Shown here: in pieces, positions 3,948 to 23,451 of the stretch
How the letters are laid out: every line of letters begins with the position of its first letter
Numbering within the stretch: the stretch's first letter is position 1
Virus genome (UHGV): UHGV-0139780
Strand: one strand, 5' to 3'
Source: a virus
DNA: 49,330 nt
The notes under the pieces: model-generated
Databases searched by the model: none
What the model was told of the DNA's origin: nothing
What the model saw: only the letters and a program-made list of their open reading frames with translations
Program-made: the position numbers and the translations under genes

Positions 3948-4009
3948 AACCTGTTTCTGTATATAAATAATAAGTAACTTATTAAATATATATATACGGA
4001 AGCAGGTCT
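3948..4009 (+). terminator. large hairpin (16-bp stem, AT-rich loop) plus T-run; copy A of a recurring element
   Basis: cctgtttctgtatata ... tatatacggaagcagg followed by tctttt; a near-identical element lies at 47461-47520. Confidence 0.5.
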
Positions 4010-4114
4010 TTTAAAAGACACCCACCAGAACAACTCCCTTCCGTTTTCACTTCCAAAAACTGACACCAGTCGCTATCATCTGCTCATTGTGATAAGTAAG
4101 TAACTACCTACCAG

Positions 4115-4864
4115 GTGAGCCACATGAGCCAAATCTTTTTCGACACAATCGACAACGACCAGTACGACTTCATGACAGAGTGGAATACCGCTGTTATGGA
4201 CAAGTGGGTTGCTGAAAACATTGGTTTGTCGCGCTGCAAAGACGAGGCTGAACTCTTCTATACGAAGTGGTTTGATTACCGCGACATGCATCCTCTTATG
4301 GCTACCTGTCTGTTTACGGAGGCATACAAACGTCAGTACTCAAATATCATGCTGACGCACGGTCGCGAACACTTTGAAACAGCTCCGTTTACCACCGGGT
4401 TAAAACGCCTGCCTTATCAGGAGTTGTCGACTGCCAATAAAACGTCGCTATGGAAAGCACGCCAGTTTGCTGACCGCTATTGCTGCTCATACGACTACTT
4501 TATCTCCACCGTGCTTTCCGCAGCTGCACGACGTCTGTGGGACAAGCTGCCTCGCCCACAACATTTGTGGCAGCCAGAACTGATTGAGATATTTGAAGAG
4601 AAATTAGCCAGGCGCGCAACAACCCGTCTGGATGACTCTCTGGTTAGCTTTAAGCATATGGGAGACATGCAGTTCAACCCGATCCAGGAAAGCTATTTTG
4701 AGTGGATTCTGGAGCGTTTACGCACCATCCCCCGCAGCAAGCGCATACGCGCAATTTTCTCCGCTATCTGGCTAATGGAAATCGTTCCAGAGCGCCTTAT
4801 TTCCGCCCACTTTCCAGAAGAACTGGAAGAAGCACGGCGGTTTATTGATCCCCTATCTAATTAA
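4115..4864 (+). CDS. hypothetical protein
   Basis: 249-aa ORF immediately upstream of the helicase gene; no motif recognised. Confidence 0.4.
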   Translation: MSHMSQIFFDTIDNDQYDFMTEWNTAVMDKWVAENIGLSRCKDEAELFYTKWFDYRDMHPLMATCLFTEAYKRQYSNIMLTHGREHFETAPFTTGLKRLPYQELSTANKTSLWKARQFADRYCCSYDYFISTVLSAAARRLWDKLPRPQHLWQPELIEIFEEKLARRATTRLDDSLVSFKHMGDMQFNPIQESYFEWILERLRTIPRSKRIRAIFSAIWLMEIVPERLISAHFPEELEEARRFIDPLSN

Positions 4865-4907
4865 CTAATACTAGAAAACAATTTGTTTAAAAAACAAAGG
4901 AAAGCAC

Positions 4908-6248
4908 ATGACCGAACTTTGCCATACAGGACGCGGGCTGTCCGAAGAGTTTGATGAAGATTTCCAGAACAGATTGACGGCATATTTTTGTCGTGATCAC
5001 GAGTTTCTTACTCGTGCGGGAGATCTGGTTGTGCCTAGCCAATTTGCCAATGCGGCCAATGCCATATTGGTTAATATGGTTTCGGGCTATTACCGTATGT
5101 ACAAGAGCGCGCCCTCTTCATCTGCGATTCTGGATCTGCTTAAGCGTGCGAAACGCGATAAGACTATCCGTGAGGAACTATTCGCGGATGTTGTTGCTGC
5201 GTTTAAGCGCATCCTTGCAGAAAAATTGTCCGATACCTCGTACATGGTTGACCAGGTATCAACCTTCGCAAAAAGCGTAGCGTTTGATGATGCTCTGATT
5301 AAGGCTGCTGAACTTAAAGAGAAAGGCGACTTTCAGGGGGCGATGGCAATCATGGCCAAGGTTCAGCAGATTGGATCGAACGAAGCGGCCGGAATCTATG
5401 ACTACTACACTTCCGCAAGTGAGCGATTGAAAGCGCGTGAATATGAGGCTTCAGAGGAGTATGTGCCAAACAGCATTACAACTGGACTCCCTCTGCTCGA
5501 TAGGTTGCTGTACCAAAAAGGCTGGGCGAAGCGTGAAATGGTGCTCTTCATGGGGTTCGCTAAATCCGGTAAATCGACCGCAATGGGTGAGTTTTCGGTA
5601 AACGCAACGCTTGCTGGCTACAATGTTCTGTATCTCTCGCTGGAGGTTCACACCACCATTTTATCCGACCGTTTTGATGCAAGATTGTCGGAGACGGAAA
5701 TGTCCAGACTGGTGGAACGGCGCGATGAAGTTCATCGTAAGTTGGCAGAGTTGGGAGCCACTAAGGGGATTGGTAGTTTGTGGGTTGTTGAGCGTCCGTC
5801 AGGAAGTATGTCACCGGCAGATCTGGACCGTATGCTTAACAGTATGAAAGCCAATGGCATGGTGCCTGACATGGTTGTTGTCGACTACGCAGATTTGATG
5901 CGTGCCAGTTATGACCTTCGTGATGATCGCGCCAATATTCGTAGTATCTACACAGATTTACGTGCTCTTTATGACAAACATAACGTTGCTGGAATCACGG
6001 CATCGCAGACAAACCGTGAAGGTGGCGCGTCAGAAGTTGCCACAATGATGCACGCTGCCGACAACATCGAAAAAGTACGTATTGCTGACCTGGTAATAAC
6101 GATCAACAAAACCGAAGAAGAAGAAGCGAAAGGAGAGGCTCGTCTCTACTTTGCTGGTTCACGTAACCAGCAAGGAGGGATCAGCATTCGTGTTAAACAA
6201 AACCTCGAACAAATGCGCTTCATTGAGCGGATCTTAGACGTTACCTAA
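4908..6248 (+). CDS. replicative DNA helicase (DnaB/gp4-like RecA-fold)
   Basis: Walker A GFAKSGKST, Walker B-like VVVDYADLM; conserved ACAAAGGAAAGCACATG start context. Confidence 0.75.
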   Translation: MTELCHTGRGLSEEFDEDFQNRLTAYFCRDHEFLTRAGDLVVPSQFANAANAILVNMVSGYYRMYKSAPSSSAILDLLKRAKRDKTIREELFADVVAAFKRILAEKLSDTSYMVDQVSTFAKSVAFDDALIKAAELKEKGDFQGAMAIMAKVQQIGSNEAAGIYDYYTSASERLKAREYEASEEYVPNSITTGLPLLDRLLYQKGWAKREMVLFMGFAKSGKSTAMGEFSVNATLAGYNVLYLSLEVHTTILSDRFDARLSETEMSRLVERRDEVHRKLAELGATKGIGSLWVVERPSGSMSPADLDRMLNSMKANGMVPDMVVVDYADLMRASYDLRDDRANIRSIYTDLRALYDKHNVAGITASQTNREGGASEVATMMHAADNIEKVRIADLVITINKTEEEEAKGEARLYFAGSRNQQGGISIRVKQNLEQMRFIERILDVT

Positions 6249-6329
6249 AAAATAAGCGTGGAGAACACCTCCACGCTTGATTCATTGGTGAAACAACTTT
6301 TCTTTTGCCAAACCACAAAAGAAAAACAC

Positions 6330-7511
6330 ATGAACCTTTATGTTATATCAACATTTAGGTTGGTCACAATATTGCCTGTTAAAAGTGGAATTATCGTGAG
6401 CGAGCTGAAAGAGCTAATTACCGAATTAGATTTTGAACAATGGTTGGACACTGAAGGTATCGTTTATCGACGTGGAGGTGTGAGTACTCGCGGTCGTGAA
6501 GTGAATATCAAGGAGTGTCCGGTATGCGGCAGCTCCAACTGGAAGGTATATTTCAATCTGACCAGCGGCGTCGGTAAATGCTTCGCTGGTGATCATCCCG
6601 AAGAGATTCAGTTCAATAAGCTGGTCTTCCTCAAGCACTACAGCGGTAAATCACGACGACAGTTCGAGGAATATGTGCAGAACGCTCTTCTTTCCCAGGG
6701 GTGGGCACCAAAGAAAGAAGAGATAGTGCTTGCAAGCACAGTCGAGTTAGAGGGACCACTTGCACTCCCTCGTCATTACGAACTTCCTATAGATGGCCGT
6801 CTTCCAGACTATCTGGTTGAACGAAACATATCGCCTGAAATGGCAAAGTATTTTGACCTACGATACTGCGTCGAAGGTAAGCACGCCTATGTAGATCCGT
6901 ATACAGATCAGGTTAAAGGACAGATATTCGATATGCGAATACTGATACCGGTTTACGATCTGGATGGGGTAATGAAGACATTTCAGGGGCGAGACATTAC
7001 CGGTACAGCTGAACGTCGCTACCTCTTTCCTATGCAGCTTCCAGCTTCAGGTAAGTTCCTCTACAACGGCCATAATGCAGTCGGCAAACAAACTGTTGTT
7101 GTCTGTGAGGGGGCGTTCGATGTTATGGGAGTCAAACGAGCTATTTTTGACGAAGAAACATTACGTGATTACGTGGAACCGATAGGAACGTTCGGGATGC
7201 ATCTATCTGGTAACACTACTCAGGATGCAGAAGATCAGTTAGGCGCGTTCCTGACGCTCAAGGCGCGTGGATTACGTAATGTGATCATGATGTGGGATAG
7301 TGAAAAGCAAGCTATACGAAACACTATGGCCGCAGCCAGGCGACTGACCAGTATCGGTCTTAATGTCAAAGTTGCGTGTTTGGGTGAGGAAGGACTCGAC
7401 CCGGGCGGTGCAACGCCAGAACAAATTATCAAAGCCTATTATCGGGCAAAACCGTATACCAAACAGTTGGAGTTGCAAAGCAAGGTTTTGGGCATTAAGG
7501 CTCTCTCATAA
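6330..7511 (+). CDS. DNA primase (zinc-finger plus TOPRIM)
   Basis: CPVCGSS...C zinc finger and VVVCEGAFDVMG TOPRIM motif; start placed at the ATG preceded by AAAAGAAAAACACATG; track start 6258 overlaps a hairpin. Confidence 0.7.
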   Translation: MNLYVISTFRLVTILPVKSGIIVSELKELITELDFEQWLDTEGIVYRRGGVSTRGREVNIKECPVCGSSNWKVYFNLTSGVGKCFAGDHPEEIQFNKLVFLKHYSGKSRRQFEEYVQNALLSQGWAPKKEEIVLASTVELEGPLALPRHYELPIDGRLPDYLVERNISPEMAKYFDLRYCVEGKHAYVDPYTDQVKGQIFDMRILIPVYDLDGVMKTFQGRDITGTAERRYLFPMQLPASGKFLYNGHNAVGKQTVVVCEGAFDVMGVKRAIFDEETLRDYVEPIGTFGMHLSGNTTQDAEDQLGAFLTLKARGLRNVIMMWDSEKQAIRNTMAAARRLTSIGLNVKVACLGEEGLDPGGATPEQIIKAYYRAKPYTKQLELQSKVLGIKALS

Positions 7512-7587
7512 AATCGCACCTTTAAAATAAGTAGATAGTCACTTATCTTTCTGTAAGAATAGTTTCATCTGTTAGCTAGGAGTTGGT

Positions 7588-8370
7588 ATGAAAGACGAAA
7601 TTCAGAAATTAGCTTGCGACATCATTGATAAAACTGGTTTAGAAATCAGCGAGAGTAACCGGCTAGACATTATTGAAAAAGCCGTCAATACAGCAATGGA
7701 TCATATTGCCACTCGTTTAGTCGATATCCCGCTACCAGGACTACCTTATCTGAAAGTTGAGTTACGCGTATGGGGCGAATCTTCTGATGCACGGCGTTCT
7801 GCATTGGTTGTTTTTATTAGCAAAGAAAACATACAAGCTCTAAAAGTGCAGGTTGGGGCATGGTTTGATGGTAGGGTTATCTACACTGATACTCTCATTT
7901 GTCCTTCAGGTGATGAGCATATTGAAGCCACTATTCGAGAATCAATTCGGGCTATGCGCAACTTGTCTTTGCTGAAAGACAAGCCTAACTATGAAAATTA
8001 CTTGCTATCAACAAAATCTGAACCAGCATTGTCGCTGAAAGCCGATTTTGTGACCCCGGCTAACTTGCTAGAAGTTTTGATCAATAAAGGGGCGAAGAAT
8101 GCCGTAAATGTAATCAGAGAGAGTGAATATGCATCTCTTTGCGACATGTGCAAAAGCCAGTTGGATCTGGTGCATATCGTTATTGATGCTGGGAAGGCAT
8201 GTGATGGCGTAATGGCGGAATTTGCTGGGAAGATGGTCAGGATTGCTAACGAATTACCGATGATAGAGCAAGAGGCTAAATCATACGCCACCAATCATGT
8301 CACAGAGCTTCTTGTCCCCTATCGCTTAGAAAGCAATCAGCGCAAGATGATTAGCTGGGGAAGTTGGTAA
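7588..8370 (+). CDS. hypothetical protein
   Basis: 260-aa ORF with good coding continuity; no motif recognised. Confidence 0.4.
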   Translation: MKDEIQKLACDIIDKTGLEISESNRLDIIEKAVNTAMDHIATRLVDIPLPGLPYLKVELRVWGESSDARRSALVVFISKENIQALKVQVGAWFDGRVIYTDTLICPSGDEHIEATIRESIRAMRNLSLLKDKPNYENYLLSTKSEPALSLKADFVTPANLLEVLINKGAKNAVNVIRESEYASLCDMCKSQLDLVHIVIDAGKACDGVMAEFAGKMVRIANELPMIEQEAKSYATNHVTELLVPYRLESNQRKMISWGSW

Positions 8371-8427
8371 TCTCTCCGAGCGTCGTTTCTTTTACGCAAA
8401 CAATGATAGGTAAGTACAAGGTTATTT

Positions 8428-8910
8428 ATGGCGATAGTTGTGAAAGCTGATTTGTCAAAAATCCCCTCTATTTCAGGAAATAATGGTTATTCACTTCGTT
8501 GTGAGGAAGTAAAGATAAACGGTGAGTCGGCATATTGCAGTTACTCCGTTTGCCAGCATACCATTCTTGCCTTCAAAGAAAACCGTCTTCCTCGAACTTC
8601 ATTCCAGTCGTGCGCAACCGCTATCAAAGCAGGCAAATGCAAGGCGTTAAAAATGATGGTTGGAGAGATTCGTAAAGGAGAATCTCTGTATTTCGAAGAT
8701 ATGACCGCGCTCATTAAGGAGGTTGAAGAACGGAATAAACAAGCCAGAACTATAAAACGAAAACGTGACAGTGTAACGATTAATAGCATGGTTAAGAAGA
8801 GCACCACATCACAAACAGCGATCACTGACGTGTATGCGGCGTTGCTTGAAGAAACAACAAAAGAAACACATGAGCAAATCGATCAACATATGGAGGCAAA
8901 ACAACAATGA
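8428..8910 (+). CDS. hypothetical protein (Cys-containing, basic C-terminus)
   Basis: 160-aa ORF; no motif recognised. Confidence 0.4.
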   Translation: MAIVVKADLSKIPSISGNNGYSLRCEEVKINGESAYCSYSVCQHTILAFKENRLPRTSFQSCATAIKAGKCKALKMMVGEIRKGESLYFEDMTALIKEVEERNKQARTIKRKRDSVTINSMVKKSTTSQTAITDVYAALLEETTKETHEQIDQHMEAKQQ

Positions 8911-9376
8911 AAAAGTTGATCGCACTTAAGCATAAGCTGGACGAAATGAAAGCTATGGGAACCAATGCAAAAAAAGAGGCATTGGCCAACATGGATGACT
9001 TCGAGCAAAGCATGGTTTCATTGATGCTCAACCCTTTCATTCGTTTTGGGGTAAAGAAATACAAAGTGACCGGAGTTCCCTGAGTACTGGAAGCCTAAAA
9101 CGCGAGCTAAGTTAGAGCGTTTAGGGTTGGTTGCAAACGTTTCTGAAACGAAGTGTTCGGCCAACTACCAGTTAACTGATAAAGGGAAAGTATTGCTACA
9201 GCAATTAGTAGAATCAGGAGTGTTAAAATGATTCCATACATCTCATTAGCTTTTATGGCGGGCTTCCTTATCGGCTTCGGCATCTGTCGTGACTTAATTA
9301 AGCAGGAACTTAAAACCAAAACACTGTGCATCGGAAAGCGTGTGTATCGAGTAGTTCATGAAACAAAGGTTAGAAA

Positions 9377-9667
9377 ATGAGCAATTTAACTTCTTGGGAA
9401 TGGTGGTTGGTCACCTATTTCTTAGCGGCCGGAGTCGCATTCGCCTTTTACGTAGGTCAGTTAGTCGTAAAACTGCTGCTGATGAAATTTGCCAGTCATA
9501 AACGTATCGATGATGGTCTGTGGCGTCTTGGCACCCTGGTGGAAACTCGCTACGGGCAACTTAAGGAGAACGAAACCATTACTATCCAAGCGAAACGATT
9601 CACTGCCACCATCACAAGAACACCTGATCGTAGAGTGGCCTTGATCAAAAAAGTCACAACCGAATAA
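9377..9667 (+). CDS. hypothetical small membrane protein
   Basis: 96 aa with N-terminal hydrophobic helix (WWLVTYFLAAGVAFAFYVGQLVV). Confidence 0.35.
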   Translation: MSNLTSWEWWLVTYFLAAGVAFAFYVGQLVVKLLLMKFASHKRIDDGLWRLGTLVETRYGQLKENETITIQAKRFTATITRTPDRRVALIKKVTTE

Positions 9668-9872
9668 AAACACGACGATAAGTATTTACTTACCTATCCT
9701 TTGTGTATAAGATGACTTTGTTTTCGTTGAGACGCGACTGTTTGAACTTAAATACAAGTGCAAACGAAGAAGTCTATCTGGCAGTAGCCTAATAAGCCAA
9801 ACACCAGCGAGGTCAGTTTCCAGCCTCGTTACCGAAATGGAACACACTGAGCGAGTGTGATTGCAGAACGCA

Positions 9873-9978
9873 GGAGGGAACATGAGTGTTCCCTCCGATG
9901 AAGTAACAGGATGGGCGGTTGGTATTTCAACTCCATATGACTCCCGGATTCTTAGCCTCTGACCGCCCATCCTGTTAC
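9873..9978. repeat. two adjacent perfect hairpins (10-bp stem/4-nt loop; 17-bp stem/41-nt loop) in an ORF-free region
   Basis: ggagggaaca tgag tgttccctcc at 9873-9896; gtaacaggatgggcggt at 9904-9920 pairs with accgcccatcctgttac at 9962-9978. Confidence 0.6.
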
Positions 9979-10053
9979 GTCATTTTGTTCAATTATGTCG
10001 TTTATACTGGGTTAAAAAGCGGCGACGTAGCCCGGCTGGTATGGTTAGCCAGC

Positions 10054-10176
10054 ACACAACGTTGAGGCCATTACATTTTTATCAATTCTAAGGTTCTGTT
10101 CACAGAGATACCGGCGAGCGTTGATATGTAACATGTTGGGCAAACATTCAATCGGAGTAGTGGCCTCAACGTTGTG
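10054..10176. repeat. 16-bp perfect inverted repeat with about 90-nt loop upstream of the tRNA cluster
   Basis: cacaacgttgaggcca (10054-10069) and tggcctcaacgttgtg (10161-10176). Confidence 0.6.
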
Positions 10177-10440
10177 AAGACAGGATAGTTGTGTAGGTTT
10201 AACCACTGTTGCCATTGGTGCCTGTTTTCACAACAAATGATTCCATACATCACATTGTATAAATTATAAAGTAGGTGCTGTCCTCAGAAACATCATCTAC
10301 TTAAAGATTTAGCCTTCTATTGAGCGAAGTCGAAAGCGTCTGGCACTAACGTAAAGTGCAAGTAGCGGTGCGTTTCCTGGCAGAAACTAACACCGCCGCG
10401 ATTGGCACTGTTGAGTAATAAATACTGTCAGTGCTGAATT

Positions 10441-10515
10441 GATGGTGTAGCTCAGCGGCAGAGCAGTTGGCTGTTAACCAACTGGTCGGTGGTTCGAATC
10501 CACCCACCATCGCCA
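10441..10515 (+). tRNA. tRNA-Asn (anticodon GTT)
   Basis: Cloverleaf by eye: acceptor gatggtg/caccatc, anticodon loop ctGTTaa, T-loop ggttcgaatcc, encoded CCA. Confidence 0.8.
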
Positions 10516-10520
10516 ATTTA

Positions 10521-10608
10521 GGGGAGTTAGTCCGTAGAGGTAGCGGGGTAGACTGTAAATCTACTGTCATTGCGACTCGGATGGTTCGACTCCATCACTC
10601 CCCACCAA
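10521..10608 (+). tRNA. tRNA-Tyr (anticodon GTA), long variable arm
   Basis: Acceptor ggggagt/actcccc, anticodon stem-loop tagac-tGTAaat-ctact, long variable arm, T-loop ggttcgactcc, CCA. Confidence 0.8.
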
Positions 10609-10611
10609 ATT

Positions 10612-10687
10612 GCCGGTTTAGCTCAGTTGGTAGAGCAGTCGCTTTGTAAGCGAATGGCCAGCGGTTCAAGTCCGTTAACCGGCACCA
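10612..10687 (+). tRNA. tRNA-Thr (anticodon TGT)
   Basis: Acceptor gccggtt/aaccggc, D-arm gctcagttggtagagc, anticodon loop ttTGTaa, T-loop ttcaagt, CCA. Confidence 0.65.
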
Positions 10688-10695
10688 CAACAATT

Positions 10696-10782
10696 GGAGA
10701 GTAGGGAGCATGGTGCTCAAACGGTCTTGAAAACCGTCCCATTGCGCAAGCGATGATGGTTCGATTCCATTACTCTCCGCCA
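10696..10782 (+). tRNA. tRNA-Ser (anticodon TGA), long variable arm
   Basis: Acceptor ggagagt/actctcc, anticodon stem-loop acggt-ctTGAaa-accgt, long variable arm, T-loop ggttcgattcc, CCA. Confidence 0.75.
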
Positions 10783-10784
10783 GC

Positions 10785-10862
10785 CACAGCGTTGAGCGGT
10801 TTGGCCTTTTAATCACCCAGATTAAGACTCCGCTAACATAAACCAGACCGCTCAACGCTGTG
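10785..10862. repeat. 16-bp perfect inverted repeat with 46-nt loop just after the last tRNA
   Basis: cacagcgttgagcggt (10785-10800) and accgctcaacgctgtg (10847-10862); arm sequence resembles the 10054/10161 repeat. Confidence 0.6.
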
Positions 10863-10936
10863 ATAGACAATTACTGCAGACGTTCTTACCATAGCTTACT
10901 AACATCCCAGCAACTCTTCTGTCAGCGCAAAATTCA

Positions 10937-10958
10937 AAGGGGCTTCGGCCCCTTTTTT
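10937..10958 (+). terminator. rho-independent terminator
   Basis: aaggggc ttcg gcccctt followed by tttttt. Confidence 0.7.
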
Positions 10959-10998
10959 GTAACTGAAATAGTCAAATCGAACTTTGTAAGGAGAAGTA

Positions 10999-11244
10999 AT
11001 GACGATCACTATCTACGGACGAGATAACTGCTCTTACTGCAAACGTGCGGTCGAGCTGGCAAAGCAACTAAAGGGGCATGGCTGCGGTGATTATGAGTAC
11101 ATCGACATCACCACAGCCGGTATCGACAAGGAAAAACTAAGTGAAATTGTTGGTAAACCGGTAGAGACTATCCCACAGGTACTGATCGACGGCCAGCCGA
11201 TTGGCGGATACACAGAACTGGCTGCATACGTCAGCACCCTCTGA
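10999..11244 (+). CDS. glutaredoxin/NrdH-like redoxin
   Basis: 81 aa with CSYC active-site motif in a thioredoxin-fold context (ITIYGRDNCSYCKRA). Confidence 0.7.
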   Translation: MTITIYGRDNCSYCKRAVELAKQLKGHGCGDYEYIDITTAGIDKEKLSEIVGKPVETIPQVLIDGQPIGGYTELAAYVSTL

Positions 11245-11248
11245 TTTT

Positions 11249-11272
11249 AACGGCTCACAGGAGCCGTTTTTA
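11249..11272 (+). terminator. rho-independent terminator
   Basis: aacggctc acag gagccgtt followed by tttta. Confidence 0.65.
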
Positions 11273-11323
11273 TTCCCACCAAACTCACTCCCGTTTCCCT
11301 TAAAATTCAAAAAACAACGTCAA

Positions 11324-11356
11324 AATGATTCCATACCTACTATGTATGGAATCATT
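11324..11356. promoter_or_regulatory. lox/dif-like candidate recombination site: 13-bp perfect inverted arms around a 7-bp spacer
   Basis: aatgattccatac ctactat gtatggaatcatt, about 100 bp upstream of the tyrosine recombinase gene. Confidence 0.4.
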
Positions 11357-11454
11357 ACTGAAAATGAGTTACTTTTACTCTTGATCCTATAAGAATCTAT
11401 GCCTAATATACTGTTTACTTATACAGTGCAACGGCGTAACTCGGTGATTGTCAT

Positions 11455-12558
11455 ATGAAAAATAGCTTTGACAGAGCACGCGCTGCGGAGAACACCTCAA
11501 AAGAGGCGATTGAGTATCTCGAAAGAGCATCTCAAATGCAGGCCGTTATGATCTCCCAGGTCAGCAATGACATGAGATTCTCGGACGCATTCATGTTATT
11601 CACTCGCTTATCTCTGCTGATAACAAGACGTCGGCCAGAGATCGCTGTTCATTGTATTTTGATACATGTTTTGCCGCACATTGCCGACGTAAAAGTAAGT
11701 GATATTAATAGGTTCATGGTGAACCAACTGGTCAACCCACTAATACTGGATGGCAAAATTGTTATGGGCCGCCGCGTTTTCTCTCTGATGAAGCAGTTCC
11801 TCAGCTGGTGCGCCTTCCAGGGGATGATCGACGTGTCACCGTTAAACGATATGTCACTGAACAAAGTTGCCGGTGGCGCAAAGCCCACGCCTCGCGAGCG
11901 GAAGCTGACCGACGCAGAGGTATGGGTGTTCTGGAATATATGGGACTACTTCAATGTGTGCGCTGGTACAAAATGGGCGGCCAGGCTATGCCTTGTATCG
12001 GCAAGACGACCTGACGAAGTTCTGCGGGCTAAAAAAAGTGAGTTCAATCTTAAGCGTGGGGTTTGGAATCAAGGCAAGAGAAACAAGTCAGCACGTGAGC
12101 ATTCGCTGCCTTTAAGCACATTAATGCGCACATGCATTGAAGAATTGTTCGAATACGGCAAAGACAGCCAGTGGCTTGTGCCTTCGAATAAAAAAATCGG
12201 GAAAGACCTTCCTATGTCTAAAGTGGCAATAGCCCAGGCATTACGTCGTATTCTGGACCGACCAGAACTGATGGAGCTTGAGCCATTTACACCCCGAGAT
12301 TTGCGCCGTACTGCGCGTAGTTACTTCCCAGCATTAGGCATAAGCCAGGAGGTATCACGCAAAATCATGAACCACAGTCTTGAGGGGATAGATCGGGTCT
12401 ACGATCGACACGATTATATGGACGAGATGCGAGACGCCTTAGAAAGTTTCTCGACGTACATCGCATCAATCGTAGAGCAACCGGATTTAGACGAAATTGA
12501 CCACAAATTCAAGGGAGATCGTCTATCAACAGAGCTTATTCGTGTAAATTTTTCATAG
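11455..12558 (+). CDS. tyrosine site-specific recombinase (integrase/resolvase family)
   Basis: C-terminal catalytic-domain signature: ARLCLVSARRPDEV, TPRDLRRTARS, NHSLEGIDRVYDRHDY; N-terminal start uncertain. Confidence 0.6.
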   Translation: MKNSFDRARAAENTSKEAIEYLERASQMQAVMISQVSNDMRFSDAFMLFTRLSLLITRRRPEIAVHCILIHVLPHIADVKVSDINRFMVNQLVNPLILDGKIVMGRRVFSLMKQFLSWCAFQGMIDVSPLNDMSLNKVAGGAKPTPRERKLTDAEVWVFWNIWDYFNVCAGTKWAARLCLVSARRPDEVLRAKKSEFNLKRGVWNQGKRNKSAREHSLPLSTLMRTCIEELFEYGKDSQWLVPSNKKIGKDLPMSKVAIAQALRRILDRPELMELEPFTPRDLRRTARSYFPALGISQEVSRKIMNHSLEGIDRVYDRHDYMDEMRDALESFSTYIASIVEQPDLDEIDHKFKGDRLSTELIRVNFS

Positions 12559-12939
12559 AGACTTTATGGCCTCAACAACCTTTTGTGATGCGCCTTTCTC
12601 TTTACCGAATCGCTCGTTATATGCAGCAAGAACCTGTTTTTCGTCCTCGTTAAGAGGAGCGGTGCCTTCTTTGTATAAAAATGCTGCGAGTTCAGGTTGG
12701 CGTTCTTCCAGAACCATCATCATAAGGCGACTTGGCTCAATATCCAGTGCCAGCGCCAGCGGACGAACCTTATCGATAGGCAAAGGAATTTTGCCACTTT
12801 TAATTAAAGAAAGGTTGTTGGCATTTTTATAACCAATAAGTCTGGCTATTTGTGCCTGACTCATAGATGAGGATTCAATCAGCCCTGCAATAACAGCAGC
12901 ATAGCGACTTTCAATAAATTCAATTTTGTTTTCAGACAT
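12553..12939 (-). CDS. XRE-family helix-turn-helix transcriptional regulator (repressor-like)
   Basis: HTH segment SQAQIARLIGYKNANNLSLIKSGK; convergent with the recombinase gene; AT-rich intergenic region upstream. Confidence 0.6.
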   Translation of the reverse strand: MSENKIEFIESRYAAVIAGLIESSSMSQAQIARLIGYKNANNLSLIKSGKIPLPIDKVRPLALALDIEPSRLMMMVLEERQPELAAFLYKEGTAPLNEDEKQVLAAYNERFGKEKGASQKVVEAIKSL

Positions 12940-13189
12940 CGTTATAACCTTTGCGCGTTTAATTCTCTCTGGTAAGTGCTTACCGATATTACATCAAAGG
13001 TTAGGGTTGTAAAGCTATTATCATTTTTTCGGCAGGCACTTGTAAGACCGAGCAAAGGTCCATGCATGGAGAAGAACTAGCCCAAAATAGGTAAGAAAAT
13101 TAACTTGCATCTGATATAGATGTATTCAGTATTGATACAAATTTTAGTAGTATTCCTTACCATAGTATAAGTTAGAATGGATTGATTGA

Positions 13190-13402
13190 ATGAAAACCAC
13201 TATTTCCAGCCTAATCGCTCTTGAGACCGGACACGTACAGAAATTAGCTGATGAGTGTGTAGCTGACATCCTCACCGATCTTCCGAATGAGCAGATTCAG
13301 GTTGGTTTGAATGACACAACTGGCTTTATATTCGAACTTAACAACAAACGCTTCACGCTTCTCAATACCGGCTCCGGGTCTTTAGCCGTCAGAATCTGTT
13401 AA
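13190..13402 (+). CDS. hypothetical small protein, divergent from the XRE regulator
   Basis: 70-aa ORF; a 9-bp inverted repeat hairpin follows at 13415-13447. Confidence 0.3.
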   Translation: MKTTISSLIALETGHVQKLADECVADILTDLPNEQIQVGLNDTTGFIFELNNKRFTLLNTGSGSLAVRIC

Positions 13403-13500
13403 CCCCTCTTCTCCCTGCGCGAATGGCTTAGTTCCCTGTTCGCGCAGTGCTACATTAAACACACTAGTAAATAATTTGTTTTCATAACAAAGGATTAGCC

Positions 13501-15609
13501 ATGTCTAAAAAACGTTCCATCAAAGAGGTTCAGGACTTCCGTGACAGTGTAAAACGAGTAGTCGCTCTCCTTTCAGGTAAAAACATCCCTGTTGCAGAAC
13601 GAGGGGACGACGCTTATGTACGCTATAACGATGATGGAGAGCCAATTCTCGTAAACATCCCATCAATCCCGGATAACGCAACACCGGCATTGATGAATGC
13701 TGTGCGCGGATTTCTCGATCATGAGGTTGCTCACATTTTGTTTACCGATATTCGTGTGTCCAACAAAATGAGAGAAAAAGGACGCGTTCCTTCCTGGTCG
13801 CTATGGAATGCCTTAGAAGACGTGTTCATCGAGCGAAAAATGGGGCAGGTCTTTAACGGAACGAGACGTAATCTGATGGCAACTCAGCGCCTTATAATCG
13901 GAAAAGTCTTTAAACCAAAGGCTTCAGAGGCTATTGCTTATTGTGGCAAAGATCAGCGCGCGCTTTTTCTAAACTTCTTTCTCTGTCCGGTTGTAAGAGC
14001 CTGGGATGGCCAAGCACCGTTCGTAGATTTCATGGATGAATACTGGCCTGTCATTGAGAAACCAATTTCATTATTAAAAGAACATGGTATCGATGTGGCC
14101 GTGCGTAACATGTCTTGCACCGAGGATTGTGTAAAGGTGGCTGCGACCATAGCTAAGATCCTCAAAGACACTGAAAGCGAAAGCAAAGGTAAGGAGTCAG
14201 CTCCGGGAAAAACTTCCGATCCTTCAGACGCTGACCAGACGGATGCCTCTGGAGAAAACAATGAAGATAACGAAGATCATGAGACACCCTCATCGTTAGA
14301 TAATCACAAATCTATCAAATCAGAATCACACAGTAAGCACAAACATGATAATAACGACAGTAATGATTCAGATAATTCTGAATCATCAGAAACAATATTC
14401 GATGATACAGAAAATGATAAAGAGGTATCAGATTCTGATGCTTCTGATAACGCGGCGTCAGAATCATTAACCGCTGACCACGAAAAAAGAAAAACGACAG
14501 AAGACGGCTCTTCAGATATTCCAACTCCGTCAAAAATGAGTCTGGAAGAGGCTTTAGAGGAGCTGGATAGCATAGAAGATGAAGTCGGAGGCATGACAGA
14601 AGATGCTATATCCGAAACGATTAAAAGCGAGTTAACAGAAAGCTCGAAAAGCGAATACAGGCCATACAATCGCTCATACGACTTCATCGGCTCGATTGAT
14701 CAGGCAGAAGCCCATATCAAACGGCTTATTAAAACATTCTCCGATATTGATTTAGGAGGATATCCAATCAGCCGCTATCGCATCGTTCCTGAAGGCAACC
14801 AGCTCTTCGACAAATATATTGAAAAGCATCTTTCGTCAGGTGTTTCGTCGACGCTGGCAAAAGACCTGGAGCGAGCAATAGCAAGCAGAAACAGAGTTCA
14901 GTTTATACCGGGCCAGCGTCGGGGGCGCATTCATGGTTCTAGTATCTACAGATTAGCAATGAATGATGATCGCGTGTTTCGTAAAAAAGAAGAATCTAAA
15001 GCCGTTAACGCCTGTGTTCAACAAGTGATTGATTTATCAGGTTCAATGTGTGGTATAACGATACAATTGGCTCTTGCAAGTGCATATACCATCGCCGATG
15101 CCCTTGATCGAATAAATGTTCCCAACATTATCACCGGCTTCACTACATTTGGTAGTCATATGGCGGCAGGAGAACTTAAGGCTGTCAAGTATGAGTTCTC
15201 TCGCTTTGAGTCTTTAATGCTACCTATCATCAAAAATTGGAATGAAAAGGTAAATTCTCGCGAAGTTCGCTCACGTATGGGGTGCGTAGGCTACACATTC
15301 CCACTTCTTAATAACGTGGATGGTGAAAGTATAGCCAGCCTTGCATCGTTATTTTCCGGTCGCATGGAGGACAGGAAGATCATGCTTGTTCTGAGTGATG
15401 GCGCGCCGTGGGCTGTTGGGAGAGGGTTTGACGCTCATTTGCGTTCGGTTGCGAAGCAAATTGAAACGCAGACTGACATTGATTTGATGGCAATTGGCAT
15501 CATGACTGACGCACCGGAGAGATTTTACTCAAATCATGCCCTGGTAACGAGCGTTGATAGTCTTGGTTCATCTGTAGTTACTGAACTATCTCGTATCATT
15601 TTGAAGTGA
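13501..15609 (+). CDS. von Willebrand factor A domain protein (CobT-like) with central acidic Ser/Asp-rich region
   Basis: MIDAS-like DLSGSM motif in the C-terminal half; long acidic low-complexity segment; followed by an AAA+ gene. Confidence 0.6.
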   Translation: MSKKRSIKEVQDFRDSVKRVVALLSGKNIPVAERGDDAYVRYNDDGEPILVNIPSIPDNATPALMNAVRGFLDHEVAHILFTDIRVSNKMREKGRVPSWSLWNALEDVFIERKMGQVFNGTRRNLMATQRLIIGKVFKPKASEAIAYCGKDQRALFLNFFLCPVVRAWDGQAPFVDFMDEYWPVIEKPISLLKEHGIDVAVRNMSCTEDCVKVAATIAKILKDTESESKGKESAPGKTSDPSDADQTDASGENNEDNEDHETPSSLDNHKSIKSESHSKHKHDNNDSNDSDNSESSETIFDDTENDKEVSDSDASDNAASESLTADHEKRKTTEDGSSDIPTPSKMSLEEALEELDSIEDEVGGMTEDAISETIKSELTESSKSEYRPYNRSYDFIGSIDQAEAHIKRLIKTFSDIDLGGYPISRYRIVPEGNQLFDKYIEKHLSSGVSSTLAKDLERAIASRNRVQFIPGQRRGRIHGSSIYRLAMNDDRVFRKKEESKAVNACVQQVIDLSGSMCGITIQLALASAYTIADALDRINVPNIITGFTTFGSHMAAGELKAVKYEFSRFESLMLPIIKNWNEKVNSREVRSRMGCVGYTFPLLNNVDGESIASLASLFSGRMEDRKIMLVLSDGAPWAVGRGFDAHLRSVAKQIETQTDIDLMAIGIMTDAPERFYSNHALVTSVDSLGSSVVTELSRIILK

Positions 15610-15704
15610 ATAAAACAGCCTTAACGATAAGTAACCACTTACGATAGTTAATGGTATATTTATATAAGAGGTTGAACGCTCATTAGAGAACAAAGGAAAA
15701 ACGC

Positions 15705-17987
15705 ATGACGACTACTGCACTGCAAAATGAAAAAAATCCTTCTGATTACCTTGTTTGCAAGTGGTGCGGCAAATCATTTCACTATTTTAAGTCCCATGTA
15801 GCCAATGGTAATTGTGAGGGCATTCCTGAGTCAGTAAAAGATTCCGACCCTGACACCGTACTGAAAATGTACACAACGCAGTTTCCAGATGAGCCAACGC
15901 TATCGAAAAAGGCACTTGATGCAATTCAAGCTAAACGTGCCGAGCAAAAAAGCGAACTGGCCAAATCTTCTGGCGTGACCAGTAGCCCAGGCTACACAGG
16001 CACAGTTGAGTACAAGACAGATCTGGTCGCAGCTCACGAACTGCTAAACGTAACGGTGGAAGAACTCGGAACAAAACGTGGGACGCCGCTCATGGTTAGC
16101 GTCAACGTCAATACGCCGTTTCCAGAGTTCGTTCCCGAAGTGAAGAAGGGCTACGTATATGGCGACTTCGAACTGATCAAAGATATTTTCATGATGCTTG
16201 AACTTGGCATACCTGGCTATTTGTGGGGTCATGCAGGAACAGGCAAGGCCCAGCCAGTAGATACGCTAATCCCAACACCAAGAGGGATGGTGCGCTTTGG
16301 TGATTTGAAAGTTGGTGATGAGGTATTCGGATCTAACGGAAAGTCCACAAAGATAACAGGCATCTTCCCACAAGGGATTAAGCCAATTTATCGCATCACC
16401 TTTAGAGATGGTTCTAGCACACGAGCTTGCGGCGAACATCTTTGGCATATCCTACCTACACATGAATACAAGACCAAAAACGGCAAGAGCTACAAGCAAC
16501 ATGCAAAAATCAGAACGACCAAAGAAATGATTGACTTGGGAATCAGAAATTCTGGTGGTCAGTGCAAGTTCAAAGTTCCTTTAACTAAAGCTGTCGAGTG
16601 GCCCTCGCAGGAACATCTCATCCATCCCTATTTATTAGGTGCGTTAATTGGAGACGGTTACTTATTAGGGAACACGCCAGCAATGAGCGTGGGTACGGAA
16701 GACATTGATATCAAGAGAAGAATCGATTCTCTTCTTCCTGATGGTATGCGCACCAGCAAGCTCAGAAACACGAGTGAAAACGGGCGGCAATTTAATATCA
16801 TCGACTGCAAAAAGTTCCGTCAAAACAGAATGATGGATGAGATTAAACGGCTGGGTTTGAATGTGCAATCAGGGGAAAAATTTATCCCAGATGAATATCT
16901 CTTCGACTCCACTGAAAATCGCCTCGCTTTACTCCGAGGACTGATGGATACAGACGGAAGCGTGAGACAAAACCGTACAAACTTCTCCACCACGTCTGAA
17001 AAGCTGGCTGCATGTGTGAAGTTTCTTGTTCAGTCTTTAGGCGGAACTGCGATAGTAAAAGATGGAGCCGCAGAACGTCATAAGAGCGGTTACTATGCTG
17101 ATATTAACGTGAAAATGTTCATTAACCCATTTTCCGCTGATCGGAAATCCAAAAACTGGTCTCCATCTACCAAGAATCCGCCAAGCAGATTTATCACCTC
17201 TATCGAGGAAGATGGCGAGGCTGAGTGCATATGTATAAAAGTAAGCGCAGATGATGAACTGTACATCACCGAAGAGTTTATCGTTACGCACAATACAACT
17301 CTGCCTACACAGCTATGTGCTTTGCTCAATCGCCCGTTGATCCGTGCCCAACATACAGCATCAATGGAAGAGGCACATGTTACGGGGCAAATTCTGGCGC
17401 GTGATGGCTCTACGTATTTCGAACCTGGCTTGCTTGCGCTCGCAATGAAGCATGGCTGGGTTTACCTCGCGGATGAATACGACTTTGCGTTTCCACAAAT
17501 TCTTGGCGTGTATCAGCCAGTGCTGGAAGGTGAAGCGTTGGTCATCAAAGAGGCGACTCCAGAATGGCGTCGCATTACTCCGCATGAACGGTTTGCTTTC
17601 ATTGGCACTGGCAACACGAACGGATCTGGTGATGAAACCGGCTTGTACCAGGGTACAAACATCCAGAACGCCGCGAACTTTTCGCGTTTTGGCATCGTTT
17701 CGAATGTGAAATACATGAGCAAAGAGGCAGAGATCAACATGTTGATAAATGCCGGCATTGTGGATGAATACGCTGAAAAGATGGTTAAGTTTGCCGGTAT
17801 CGTTCGCGATGGATACGAAGAACACAATATTAGCCAACCAATTGGGCCTCGTGAGCTTTTGTTGTCGGCCAAGATTGGAATGATGCGAGGCGATTTTGTG
17901 ACAGGTATTGAGCGTTCTTTCATTAACAAACTCCCTTCAGCTTCTGCGCAAGCGGCACGTGAAGTTGTTCAAAAAATATTTGGTTAA
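15705..17987 (+). CDS. AAA+ ATPase (CobS/MoxR-like) interrupted by an intein
   Basis: Walker A GHAGTGK is split from the TTLPTQL continuation by 349 aa carrying two LAGLIDADG-like motifs and a terminal HN. Confidence 0.6.
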   Translation: MTTTALQNEKNPSDYLVCKWCGKSFHYFKSHVANGNCEGIPESVKDSDPDTVLKMYTTQFPDEPTLSKKALDAIQAKRAEQKSELAKSSGVTSSPGYTGTVEYKTDLVAAHELLNVTVEELGTKRGTPLMVSVNVNTPFPEFVPEVKKGYVYGDFELIKDIFMMLELGIPGYLWGHAGTGKAQPVDTLIPTPRGMVRFGDLKVGDEVFGSNGKSTKITGIFPQGIKPIYRITFRDGSSTRACGEHLWHILPTHEYKTKNGKSYKQHAKIRTTKEMIDLGIRNSGGQCKFKVPLTKAVEWPSQEHLIHPYLLGALIGDGYLLGNTPAMSVGTEDIDIKRRIDSLLPDGMRTSKLRNTSENGRQFNIIDCKKFRQNRMMDEIKRLGLNVQSGEKFIPDEYLFDSTENRLALLRGLMDTDGSVRQNRTNFSTTSEKLAACVKFLVQSLGGTAIVKDGAAERHKSGYYADINVKMFINPFSADRKSKNWSPSTKNPPSRFITSIEEDGEAECICIKVSADDELYITEEFIVTHNTTLPTQLCALLNRPLIRAQHTASMEEAHVTGQILARDGSTYFEPGLLALAMKHGWVYLADEYDFAFPQILGVYQPVLEGEALVIKEATPEWRRITPHERFAFIGTGNTNGSGDETGLYQGTNIQNAANFSRFGIVSNVKYMSKEAEINMLINAGIVDEYAEKMVKFAGIVRDGYEEHNISQPIGPRELLLSAKIGMMRGDFVTGIERSFINKLPSASAQAAREVVQKIFG
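16248..17294 (+). mobile_element. intein with LAGLIDADG homing-endonuclease domain inside the AAA+ ATPase P-loop
   Basis: LLGALIGDGYL and LLRGLMDTDGSV blocks; ends ...VTHN with Thr as +1 residue; N-terminal residue Ala (non-canonical); excision restores GHAGTGKTTL. Confidence 0.6.
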
Positions 17988-18167
17988 TCGTGCGTAAAGG
18001 ATGTTTCGGCTCTCTTATCGCTGCTTCTGAAACTGGTAAGGCTTGTCTGGTATGTCCAGACAAGCCCGATTGTCACCAATCAGCAAAAGAAGTTGCGATT
18101 TCGATGCATGGGAAGTTCGTAGGCTTCCCCAATGACAAAATCAAAAAAACCAGAAAGGTAAAAACAC

Positions 18168-21686: not shown

Positions 21687-21693
21687 TCCAATA

Positions 21694-21719
21694 AACATGG
21701 CCATAAAGGCCATGTTTTC
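21694..21719 (+). terminator. hairpin after dnaE (terminator-like, short T-run)
   Basis: aacatggcc ataaa ggccatgtt then ttcc; overlaps the first codons of the track ORF 21697. Confidence 0.45.
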
Positions 21720-21789
21720 CCTTATCCCCTCACATCCCCCTATCTTCAAGCTCATTGCTTCATCATCACAATGCTATAATAAATACAAA

Positions 21790-22245
21790 ATGATAAGTGA
21801 TAAGGAAATGCTCATGTTCGCCGATATTTACGAGAAAATAATGTCTGATCTCGAGTTTGACCGAGACAATCTGGAAGAAGTCTGGCGTAGACAACCCCGC
21901 CTTTTAATGGAGTATGGCTCAAAACTCGCTCATGCAGAAAGAAGTGTCGCAGAGGCAAAACTTAACCTTGAAGCTGTTGAAGCCAAGCTATACGACACAG
22001 AGCGTAAGAACTTGAGTATGAACGGCATTAAGTTCAATGAGTCTGTACTGGACGCTAAGGTTAAAACAAACCCACAGTATCTGTCTAAACGGCAGAAGTT
22101 GGATGAAGCACGGCACATCGCAGACATATACAAACATGCTGTCGCCGCCTTTTCGCATCGCCGAGACATGATCGTTCAGGCGTCGAAGATGGCCATCGTT
22201 GAGTTAGATCGATTAGGCTCTGAACGCTTTATTACTCCCCGCTGA
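21790..22245 (+). CDS. hypothetical protein (possibly UvsY-like recombination mediator; weak)
   Basis: Start moved to ATG at 21790, downstream of the hairpin and a TATAAT-like box; about 151 aa, mostly helical and charged. Confidence 0.35.
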   Translation: MISDKEMLMFADIYEKIMSDLEFDRDNLEEVWRRQPRLLMEYGSKLAHAERSVAEAKLNLEAVEAKLYDTERKNLSMNGIKFNESVLDAKVKTNPQYLSKRQKLDEARHIADIYKHAVAAFSHRRDMIVQASKMAIVELDRLGSERFITPR

Positions 22246-22362
22246 TTTTTGATAGATAATAAGTATGTACTGATCTATCATTTGACAGCTCGAAAAAGCC
22301 ACGAATGAACGAAAGCCCAACGCGCATAGCGCCATCGGTCAAATCACAACAAGGAGAAACAC

Positions 22363-23391: not shown

Positions 23392-23406
23392 TCCCATTAC
23401 GTGACC

Positions 23407-23436
23407 AGTAAGGCGTCTACGGACGCCTTACTTTTT
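23407..23436 (+). terminator. rho-independent terminator after the SSB gene
   Basis: agtaaggcgtc tacg gacgccttact followed by ttttt. Confidence 0.65.
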
Positions 23437-23451
23437 GGAAGGAATGTACCG

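Follow-up and report, generated by a model that had tools for sequence, protein, structure and literature searches.

The closest known analogue of the element analyzed here is the start-associated sequences (SAS) of Cluster K mycobacteriophages, together with their extended form (ESAS). The element is a sequence motif that precedes the start codons of about ten genes in a 49,330-nucleotide stretch of viral DNA (UHGV virus genome UHGV-0139780), the whole of which is referred to below as the window. SAS are 13-bp asymmetric repeats with 11 to 19 copies, which all point the same way and are confined to the non-structural half of the genome (PMC3203893). They are located a few bases before starts that are mostly ATG, they combine a Shine-Dalgarno (SD) core with conserved positions that are unable to pair with rRNA, and they are absent from the host genome (PMC3203893). 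Approximately half of the SAS are preceded by an inverted repeat (ESAS), which is now placed within SigA-like promoters (PMC3203893; PMC11373665, the Adephagia study of 2024). The function of SAS is still termed ill-defined (PMC3203893, PMC11373665, PMC12699233).

The motif in the window is organized in much the same way. Like SAS, it is a short asymmetric repeat with about 10 to 19 copies per genome, which are found in one orientation, in the non-structural half, and immediately upstream of starts that are mostly ATG. Both sequences join an SD core to conserved flanks without 16S rRNA pairing, and neither is present in the host chromosome. Furthermore, some copies in the window are preceded by an inverted repeat at a predicted sigma70-like promoter, which recalls the inverted repeats in SigA-like promoters before a subset of SAS, although the link to the start motif is loose here. 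In both systems the repeat is read as a DNA-binding site.

Nucleotide identity and the Cyrano annotation identify the window as the non-structural part of a phage-plasmid of the SSU5 type. Positions 4000 to 24000 share 96% identity by megablast with Escherichia phages CMS-2020a, Cyrano (pLF82), and PhiR41_1, 81% with Salmonella phage SSU5, and about 77% with Klebsiella phage-plasmids. SSU5-like phage-plasmids are common in Escherichia, Salmonella, and Klebsiella, and they switch between plasmid maintenance and the lytic state. Cyrano (108 kb, joined from three pieces) was used as the reference for whole-genome comparisons, and the flanking thirds of SSU5 were compared by DNA sequence search only.

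A start-associated motif precedes about ten genes of the window

The start motif has the consensus (A)ACCACAAAGGAAAAACAC-ATG, directly abuts the ATG of about ten genes on the + strand, and is a genuine regulatory signature. When the window was searched with the 18-mer ACAAAGGAAAAACACATG at up to 3 mismatches, 6 matches were recovered, all on the + strand (ATGs at 6330, 15705, 22363, 28541, 32474, and 39512), compared to 0.09 expected and a maximum of 1 in shuffled sequences. A position weight matrix made from the sites additionally recovers the ATGs at 4908, 18168, and 26935, and a weak copy at 13501 brings the number of motif starts to ten. The original prediction had proposed near-identical start contexts before at least nine genes, which agrees with the starts recovered by the matches and the matrix, and the consensus proved to be longer than the version given there. 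That prediction had also ranked 13501 and 18168 as weak. This is true of 13501, which shares only ACAAAGGA and has no AAACAC, but not of 18168, which scores 28 bits with GGT replacing GGA.

The motif sites are as follows, with coordinates that include the ATG and with matrix scores in bits.

4886 to 4910, + strand: DnaB-like helicase gene, aaaaAACAAAGGAAAGCAC-ATG; 25 bits; start annotated in Cyrano and SSU5
6308 to 6332, + strand: primase gene, ccaAACCACAAAAGAAAAACAC-ATG; 32 bits; opens a short leader open reading frame (ORF) that is fused in frame to primase here
13479 to 13503, + strand: CobT-like gene (CobT by Pfam), weak copy ataACAAAGGATTAGCC-ATG
15683 to 15707, + strand: CobS-like AAA gene with a predicted intein, start motif and ATG; 28 bits
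18146 to 18170, + strand: DNA polymerase III alpha gene; 28 bits; lies inside the preceding small ORF (17990-18193), hence no promoter before the motif
22341 to 22365, + strand: gene for a gp32-like single-stranded DNA-binding protein (SSB), start motif and ATG; Pfam gp32 E = 4e-61
26913 to 26937, + strand: small membrane-protein gene; spacer one base shorter; predicted promoter TTGAAA-N17-TATCAT (26877-26905) about 20 nt upstream
28519 to 28543, + strand: gene at 28541, best copy, ctAACCACAAAAGGAAAAACAC-ATG; 34 bits; 18-nt gap, with the motif starting at the stop codon of the previous gene
32452 to 32476, + strand: sbcD-like nuclease gene; the motif makes up most of a 5' untranslated region (UTR) of about 28 nt; predicted promoter TTGTTT (32415-32420)-N16-TAAAAT (32437-32442)
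39490 to 39514, + strand: nrdB, start motif and ATG; match in both the matrix and the mismatch search

Nine of the ten motif ATGs are starts that have been independently annotated in Cyrano and SSU5, and the tenth (6330) is in frame with the annotated primase start and 66 nt upstream of it. Base identities are position specific, with C at -1 in 10/10 sites, A at -2 in 8/10, and C at -3 in 8/10, and AACCAC is common to five sites. The triplet CAC occupies positions -3 to -1 at 9 of the 53 curated starts of the window. For the same 53 starts, the hexamers AAACAC, AACCAC, and ACAAAG are enriched between -25 and -1, besides SD hexamers. Enrichment upstream of starts relative to shuffled sequence, on which the original prediction depended, is thus seen both in the motif matches (6 versus 0.09) and in start-region hexamers beyond the SD. 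The sequence AACACATG gives a similar picture, with 7 copies in the window versus about 1.7 expected, all of them on the + strand and 6 opening ORFs of at least 50 codons. Cyrano carries 12 copies of AACACATG, of which 11 are on the + strand and 10 open genes.

The SD core of the consensus is AAGGA with a spacer of 7 nt, and AAGGA, AAGGAG, or AAGG is found 6 to 9 nt from the ATG in 9/10 copies. Outside the GG of the SD, the motif consists almost wholly of A and C, and inspection shows AAGGA to be the only part able to pair with the established E. coli anti-SD sequence (3'-AUUCCUCC). Conservation of the CAC at -3 to -1 and of the ACCACA 5' of the SD extends beyond this pairing. The remaining 43 starts in the window have ordinary, varied SD sequences. 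Similarity between paralogous motif sites ends abruptly at about -22, and the flanks are unrelated.

An apparent extra copy with an ATG at 8870 was rejected because it encodes the C terminus (EETTKETH) of the upstream gene, whose stop codon is overlapped by the “ATG” in SSU5. A reading of TTTGTTTAA as a MotA box was also discarded, as by inspection no -10 element is spaced from it as required and the box would include the start codon.

The motif is conserved among SSU5-like relatives and absent from host genomes

All strong motif matches in Cyrano are on the + strand between 32 and 86 kb; the 27-kb structural module and the final 22 kb contain none. Genome-wide, 12 matches exceed 20 bits. Three additional copies outside the range of the window precede TciA-like, Ead/Ea22-like, and Eae-like genes. 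Among annotated Cyrano starts, CAC at -3 to -1 is present at 13/86 in the non-structural set versus 0/22 in the structural set, and the leaders of structural genes contain 33% A (Cyrano) versus 60% A for motif leaders (window).

A search of 185,579 representative prokaryotic genomes with the exact extended motif returned only 6 matches, which is about the chance level. These matches are in unrelated taxa and none is in Enterobacteriaceae, and the motif is therefore not a type of host ribosome-binding site. A search of IMG/VR with the exact 16-mer gave mostly single chance matches in unrelated contigs and was not informative. The original prediction regarded the signature as element specific, and this description is accurate at the level of the family, given that Salmonella SSU5 and Klebsiella-type relatives have variants of it before the orthologous genes. 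The orthologous variants in SSU5 are ccaaaggaaagcac, ccacaaaagaaaaacac, agtaaggaaaaaacac, cagaaaggtaaaaacac, caaggagaaatac, caaaaggaaacac, aaggagaaaacac, cacaaaggaaaagacac, and cagagggaaacac. The commonest context among SSU5 long-ORF ATGs that are preceded by an SD is CAC-ATG, and the motif of the Pol III alpha gene differs from its SSU5 orthologue at 1 of the 24 bases before the ATG.

Conservation of individual sites was assessed in alignments of relatives. Upstream of sbcD (67 distinct IMG/VR relatives), positions -22 to -1 are conserved at 0.94, versus 0.65 for third and 0.92 for first codon positions. Hardly any change is seen between the -10 hexamer and the ATG, and the sequence farther upstream diverges. 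At nrdB, lineages differ in the part of the motif near the SD, and GG(G/A)AAACAC-ATG persists. One helicase lineage (L347) has a longer spacer (GGATAACAAACAC-ATG), and AAACAC still abuts the ATG. In the primase copy, the GG of the SD is lost in the lineage of the window (ACAAAAGAAAAACAC; SD part AAAAGAAAAA) and retained in another (SD part AAAAGGAAAAA), and AAACAC-ATG is kept. AAACAC-ATG thus survives changes in the SD and in its spacing, and it is retained in SSU5 as well; the ATG-proximal part is therefore maintained independently of the SD.

As a separate observation at sbcD, the stretch TTGTATCAAAATAA between the -10 hexamer and the start motif (within 32415-32451) varies scarcely more among diverged lineages than the motif does. 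Such invariance exceeds what a promoter or a ribosome-binding site should need.

The motif appears to act on translation initiation

The arrangement of the sites indicates that the start motif acts on translation rather than transcription. It is present in one orientation, is in exact register with the ATG, and occurs where there is no promoter (28541 and 18168). Other copies follow promoters of different kinds, at distances from the -10 element that range from about 20 to more than 60 nt. Moreover, 8/10 motif sites follow an intergenic gap of at least 43 nt, such that ribosomes must load afresh rather than be handed on from the upstream gene. The predicted energy required to open the region from -18 to +11 is 5.4 kcal/mol for motif starts compared to 7.8 kcal/mol for other starts (Mann-Whitney p = 0.009), and the A content is 60% versus 36%. 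Folds of the leaders of the helicase, 28061, nrdB, sbcD, 28541, and SSB genes are no better than those of shuffled sequences.

The primase gene provides an additional comparison. Its leader ORF (6330-6395) is fused in frame in the window, is a separate upstream ORF of 23 codons in SSU5 (L005 10838-10909) with a TGA that overlaps the primase ATG (ATGA), and has 6 codons in a third lineage. The start motif and its ATG are retained in all three lineages despite this variation, which fits a role in ribosome loading. Public annotations place the primase start at a downstream GTG or ATG.

We propose that, at the mRNA level, the start motif would by itself give ribosomes a highly accessible place to load on about ten non-structural genes. 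These genes encode the helicase, primase, CobT- and CobS-like proteins, Pol III alpha, gp32-like SSB, SbcD, NrdB, and two small proteins. The A/C flanks are predicted to pair neither with each other nor with the 3' end of 16S rRNA, which would keep the site single stranded. By this route the motif may raise or set the level of translation initiation.

A dispersed palindrome marks a putative operator class (O2)

The original prediction noted a palindrome upstream of some start contexts. The aligned copies define a dyad of about 19 bp, AGAAAACAA-n-TTGTTTTCT (O2), in which one arm is usually better conserved. The 18-mer GAAAACAATTTGTTTAAA is present at 4874-4891 and 28030-28047, and TTGTTTAAACAA at 39451-39462, which places the positions given previously (4873, 28030, and a related site at 39452) correctly to within one base. 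The palindrome is longer than was first described and is spread over the whole genome. A search of the window with AAACAATTTGTTTAAA at up to 3 mismatches gave 6 matches versus 1.16 expected, and copies at 2841-2859 (upstream of parA) and 39466-39484 had been overlooked. In these two copies the core AACAAnTTGTT is at 2845 (parA) and 39470 (nrdB), and a degenerate copy is at 13469. The O2 sites and the associated predicted promoters are listed here.

4845 to 4872, + strand: predicted sigma70-like helicase promoter, -35 TTGATC (4845-4850), 16-nt spacer, -10 AATACT (4867-4872); located in the 3' end of the upstream ORF
4873 to 4891, strand not assigned: O2 of the helicase gene, AGAAAACAATTTGTTTAAA; operator-like dyad at about +1 to +15 of the predicted promoter; exact core
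28029 to 28047, strand not assigned: O2 of the DUF7238 gene (28061); follows a terminator at 27986-28005
2841 to 2859, strand not assigned: O2 of parA (2892), AGAAAACAAGTTGTTTCAG; parA lacks the start motif; identical in SSU5
13466 to 13484, strand not assigned: degenerate O2 of the CobT-like gene, AGTAAATAATTTGTTTTCA; the SSU5 orthologue has the exact core AGAAAACAAATTGTTTAAA
39442 to 39484, + strand: predicted nrdB promoter, -35 TTGTAA (39442-39447), TTGTTTAAACAA in the spacer (39451-39462), -10 TAAGAT (39464-39469)
39466 to 39484, + strand: second O2-type site of nrdB, AACAACTTGTTTAAAC, over the predicted transcription start; the promoter follows the nrdA terminator hairpin (39412-39430)

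Cyrano carries 12 exact AACAAnTTGTT cores versus 0.4 expected, all of them intergenic and 13 to 42 nt before the ATGs of + strand genes. The start motif is missing from most of the genes behind these palindromes. Among the genes with a palindrome are parA, that of the small terminase subunit, and several consecutive small genes at 93 to 98 kb that lack the motif. In many copies, a GATAAT or TATTAT hexamer is located 7 to 11 nt (mostly 9 to 10 nt) farther upstream. Upstream of the helicase gene, relatives keep TTGATC or TTGATT and a TAnnnT hexamer 16 nt downstream (e.g., TTGATC-N16-TAGTAT in SSU5-type lineages), and TAGAAAACAAnTTGTTTAAG is kept in 80 relatives while its flanks vary. Similarly, 59 distinct relatives share the arrangement upstream of nrdB, in which the terminator hairpin is followed by TTGnnn-N16-TAAGAT and the two O2-type sites occupy the spacer and the position immediately behind the -10 element. 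The predicted promoter hexamers are clear for nrdB and weak for the helicase and 28061 genes, and a generic promoter scan did not call them. Transcription is predicted to start at about 4878-4880 (helicase), 26912, 32448, and 39472-39476.

Many AAACAAnTTGTTT palindromes are preceded by a conserved block of the form GATAAT/TATTAT - tAACACCAAC - AAGAAAACAA, which is found at Cyrano positions 93166, 95802, 97941, and 98426 and at SSU5 positions 17731 and 31850. The A/C-rich part of this block resembles the start motif through a common GAAAA(A)CA, and this resemblance could reflect either coincidence or a common reader.

The palindrome was also considered as an RNA element. Its arms are 1 nt apart, allow only A-U and G-U pairs, and are unpaired with each other in predicted folds (z of -0.5 to +0.8 relative to shuffled sequences). 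They therefore form no hairpin of their own as RNA, and we rejected a reading of the palindrome as an RNA hairpin or intrinsic terminator because the folds are no better than those of shuffled sequences. The NrdR box is a 16-bp palindrome of the type acaCwAtATaTwGtgt. The palindromes upstream of nrdB (AACAACTTGTTTAAAC and TTGTTTAAACAA) do not fit this pattern, and this candidate was dismissed as well. At the DNA level, the dyad coincides with the -10 element and predicted transcription start of weak sigma70-type promoters or follows them closely, and it would be the operator of a dimeric regulator. The variable position of O2 relative to the -10 element favors a repressor, which would be the most likely type of O2-binding protein. 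Candidate regulators for the dyads are the HTH (helix-turn-helix) protein at 12553-12939, CYRAN_37, 98, 114, and 123 of Cyrano, and SSU5_116 and 121.

A combination of promoter/operator and translation-initiation signature, as originally proposed, is right in kind, but its parts are independent modules rather than one composite signal. The start motif is found without a promoter (28541 and 18168) and behind promoters that carry another operator (22363 and 26935), and palindromes are found without the motif. The 38 bases flagged initially (4873-4910) would be the control region in front of the replicative-helicase gene, with two independent modules.

A second putative operator class (O1) is more common

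The commonest operator-like palindrome of the element is ATAGGTAAG-N2-CTTACCTAT (O1), which the original prediction did not include. The window has 11 sites at up to 4/18 mismatches versus 0.1 expected. The O1 sites, with no strand assigned, are these.

243 to 262: O1 site
4092 to 4111: O1 site
9678 to 9697: O1 site
12968 to 12987: O1 site
22259 to 22278: O1 site
26883 to 26902: O1 site
28835 to 28854: O1 site
32342 to 32361: O1 site
37026 to 37045: O1 site
41738 to 41757: O1 site
46813 to 46832: O1 site

All O1 sites that were inspected precede gene starts. Several of them coincide in part with the -35 and -10 elements of the best sigma70-like promoters in the window (e.g., 26877-26905, 22253-22281, and 37023-37051). 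One site precedes the gene of the helix-turn-helix (HTH) repressor itself (12553-12939, minus strand). O1, rather than the AAACAAnTTGTTT palindrome, is probably the main operator of the lysogeny repressor.

Between the nrdA promoter (37023-37051) and its ATG (37091), a G+C-rich hairpin followed by a T-run (GGGCCACTATATTTAGTGGCCC TCTTTATTT) is located at 37052-37073 and is kept in SSU5. The hairpin core CCACTATATTTAGTGG (37055-37070) resembles an NrdR box and is a better candidate for one than the palindromes upstream of nrdB. This hairpin could be a leader attenuator or a site for host NrdR.

Alternative explanations for the motif

We consider it probable that the motif is a class-specific, unstructured ribosome-loading sequence for non-structural genes, accompanied by a separate, dispersed promoter operator. 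Several observations sit uneasily with this explanation. The difference in opening energy is modest, and the sites at 6330 and 18168 are not especially open. The order of A and C is position specific, even though openness alone would leave A and C interchangeable, and such an order suggests a reader that recognizes the sequence. The motif is missing from structural genes, although late genes as a rule have to be expressed at high levels, such that it is no general requirement for strong translation in the host. On the operator side, the -35 and -10 assignments for the helicase gene are weak, and a Pfam search of 25 proteins, including small ones encoded downstream of Cyrano palindromes, found no palindrome regulator; its output consisted of DUFs, one weak HTH match, and one S24 peptidase. 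Because accessibility alone explains neither the A/C order nor the absence from late genes, a trans-acting reader stays plausible. The motif might accordingly be a translational operator, in which a phage or host RNA-binding protein reads (ACCACA)...AAACAC-AUG and coordinately represses or activates genes for replication, recombination, and nucleotide metabolism. Such control would resemble that exerted by T4 RegA or by gp32 on its own gene, and the gp32-like SSB or an ASCH-domain protein are conceivable readers. This idea, which has also been put forward for mycobacteriophage SAS (PMC3203893, PMC11373665), is the main rival and is considerably less likely than the ribosome-loading explanation. 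It would account for conserved non-SD bases that are position specific and cannot pair with 16S rRNA, for the persistence of AAACAC beside the ATG when the SD or spacing changes, and for a regulon-like gene set of replication and recombination functions from which structural genes are excluded. The gp32-family SSB gene of the element itself carries the motif. Against this, tblastn with T4 RegA revealed no homologue in the window or Cyrano (best E of 0.5), Pfam shows no RNA-binding regulator among the 25 proteins scanned, and no lineage-specific covariation of the consensus, of the kind expected with a coevolving factor, is seen across Escherichia, Salmonella, and Klebsiella relatives. The A/C-rich motif is also unlike the AU-rich RegA operators. 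A complementary RNA partner was sought in the Cyrano genome with G-U pairs allowed. Apart from the antisense strands of the motif sites, no stretch scored higher than 15-16/21, which equals the result for shuffled sequences. Rfam at gathering thresholds matched only three of the four tRNAs and gave no known RNA family at the motif. The motif could be the enterobacterial counterpart of SAS, an RNA operator through which a dedicated trans-acting factor (a host factor that has been hijacked, or a phage product such as a small uncharacterized protein or the gp32-like SSB) switches the translation of replication, recombination, and dNTP-supply genes as a block. We judge this rather unlikely. If true, such a block switch might operate, for example, between plasmid-like maintenance and lytic replication.

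The ribosome-loading explanation must also be compared with proposals that do not involve translation or do not involve function. The start context could work at the DNA level, for example as an initial-transcribed or downstream promoter element, or as a half-site for the protein that binds AGAAAACAA-n-TTGTTTTCT (through the common GAAAA(A)CA). There is some likeness between AACCACAAAGGAAAAACAC and the left dyad arm with its flank (CACCAACAAGAAAACAA), and in several genes the motif is almost the entire short 5' UTR just downstream of the promoter. However, this resemblance may be mere A/C-rich composition, the motif has a constant orientation and a register that is exact to the ATG and not to any promoter, it is found inside a coding region and at an 18-nt gap without a promoter, and its distance to the -10 element varies from about 20 to more than 60 nt. 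We therefore find action on DNA improbable. Still less credit is due to the idea that the copies have no function of their own and were spread by recombination or duplication of leader cassettes, or arose by chance and A-rich composition around ordinary SDs. Phage genomes are mosaic, the motif is short and A-rich, and the weak “copy” at ATG 8870 did prove to be ordinary C-terminal coding sequence. Nevertheless, the similarity of paralogous sites ends sharply at about -22 between unrelated flanks, and shuffles give 0.09 matches versus 6 observed. Orthologous sites are moreover conserved like first codon positions (0.94 versus 0.92) and above third positions (0.65), and the ATG-proximal part persists or reappears amid turnover. 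Finally, the ACA triplets, including the C-ACA-UG at the start codon, might be cleavage sites of a MazF-type mRNA interferase that generates leaderless translatable mRNAs under stress. ACA overlaps the AUG in most copies, another ACA is 5' of the SD, and several toxin-antitoxin systems are present on the element, but no MazF-type toxin is annotated there, the leaderless-mRNA model is itself disputed, and nothing in the data requires cleavage. We give this proposal almost no weight.

Gene content and other features of the window

Nearly all genes of the window are on the + strand. By comparison with the Cyrano annotation, they include those for lysis, toxin-antitoxin pairs, parA, helicase, primase, a tRNA cluster, integrase, and an HTH repressor, together with CobT- and CobS-like proteins, Pol III alpha, UvsY, gp32-like SSB, an exonuclease, RecA, and RepA, as well as SbcCD, RuvC, NrdAB, MazG, ThyX, and DHFR.

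Some of these genes differ in length from their relatives. The CobS-like AAA gene (15705-17987) encodes 760 amino acids versus 411 in Cyrano and SSU5, and the RecA gene (24665-26842) encodes 725 versus 358 in SSU5. By Pfam, both proteins have LAGLIDADG homing-endonuclease domains, and RecA additionally has an intein splicing domain. For the CobS-like gene, an intein is suggested by the endonuclease domains and the extra length. The DNA ligase gene (8907-9083) is truncated, in that about 54 first codons match the 440-amino-acid ligase of Cyrano and SSU5 before the ORF stops, and ligase has apparently been lost from this element. Four tRNA genes (Asn-GTT, Tyr-GTA, Thr-TGT, and Ser-TGA) are located at 10441-10782, compared to three in Cyrano (without Tyr) and one in SSU5. 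This segment shares 95% identity with the tRNA region of the unrelated Escherichia phage vB_EcoM-Ro157c2YLVW and 79% with N4-like phages, which suggests horizontal exchange of tRNA cassettes.

Comparison with known systems

No description of the start motif or the palindrome was found in the literature searched for SSU5, pHCM2, or Cyrano. The present analysis offers a first map of the cis-regulatory vocabulary of SSU5-like elements, with one start-associated translation signal and two dispersed putative operator classes. The motif can correct or support start-codon calls (e.g., the primase leader), and it marks genes that are treated as one expression class. In addition, a SAS-like system in an E. 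coli host would make the role of SAS, which were described in 2011, approachable by routine genetics.

Strong SD regions are known to be accompanied by A-rich or CA-rich translational enhancers, and the motif shares with such regions an AAGGA at optimal spacing, an A-rich unstructured spacer, and an ATG. It differs from ordinary ribosome-binding sites in having about 20 position-specific bases common to its sites, whereas the ordinary sites of one genome share no such stretch. A looser analogue is T4 RegA (NC_000866), where likewise a set of early and replication genes has a common sequence around the initiation codon, which would allow coordinate control. Operators of RegA are AU-rich and poorly conserved, unlike the motif, and tblastn found no RegA homologue in the window or Cyrano; the genes therefore do not belong to a RegA regulon of the T4 type.

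The two palindrome classes (AGAAAACAA-n-TTGTTTTCT and ATAGGTAAG-N2-CTTACCTAT) are reminiscent of the C1 operators of phage-plasmid P1 and of stoperators, which are likewise dispersed as many operator copies before separate operons. Both of those systems use asymmetric sites, with 17-mers for C1 of P1 and 13-mers inside transcribed regions for stoperators, whereas the sites described here are symmetric dyads at predicted promoters. Stoperators are those of Cluster A mycobacteriophages, which are mentioned in the study of SAS (PMC3203893).

The comparison with SAS and ESAS remains the closest. The differences are that the sequences have no likeness (GGGATAGGAGCCC for SAS with up to 2 deviations versus ACCACAAAGGAAAAACAC here), that the hosts are Enterobacteriaceae rather than Actinobacteria, and that SAS are 3 to 9 bp from the start codon whereas the motif abuts the ATG. 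Unlike the inverted repeats of ESAS, the palindrome is only loosely linked to the start motif, with most copies located before genes that lack the motif, and two palindrome classes are present. Because the motif shares every organizational feature of SAS but no common sequence, it is best regarded as an independent analogue of SAS and not as a member of the same family.

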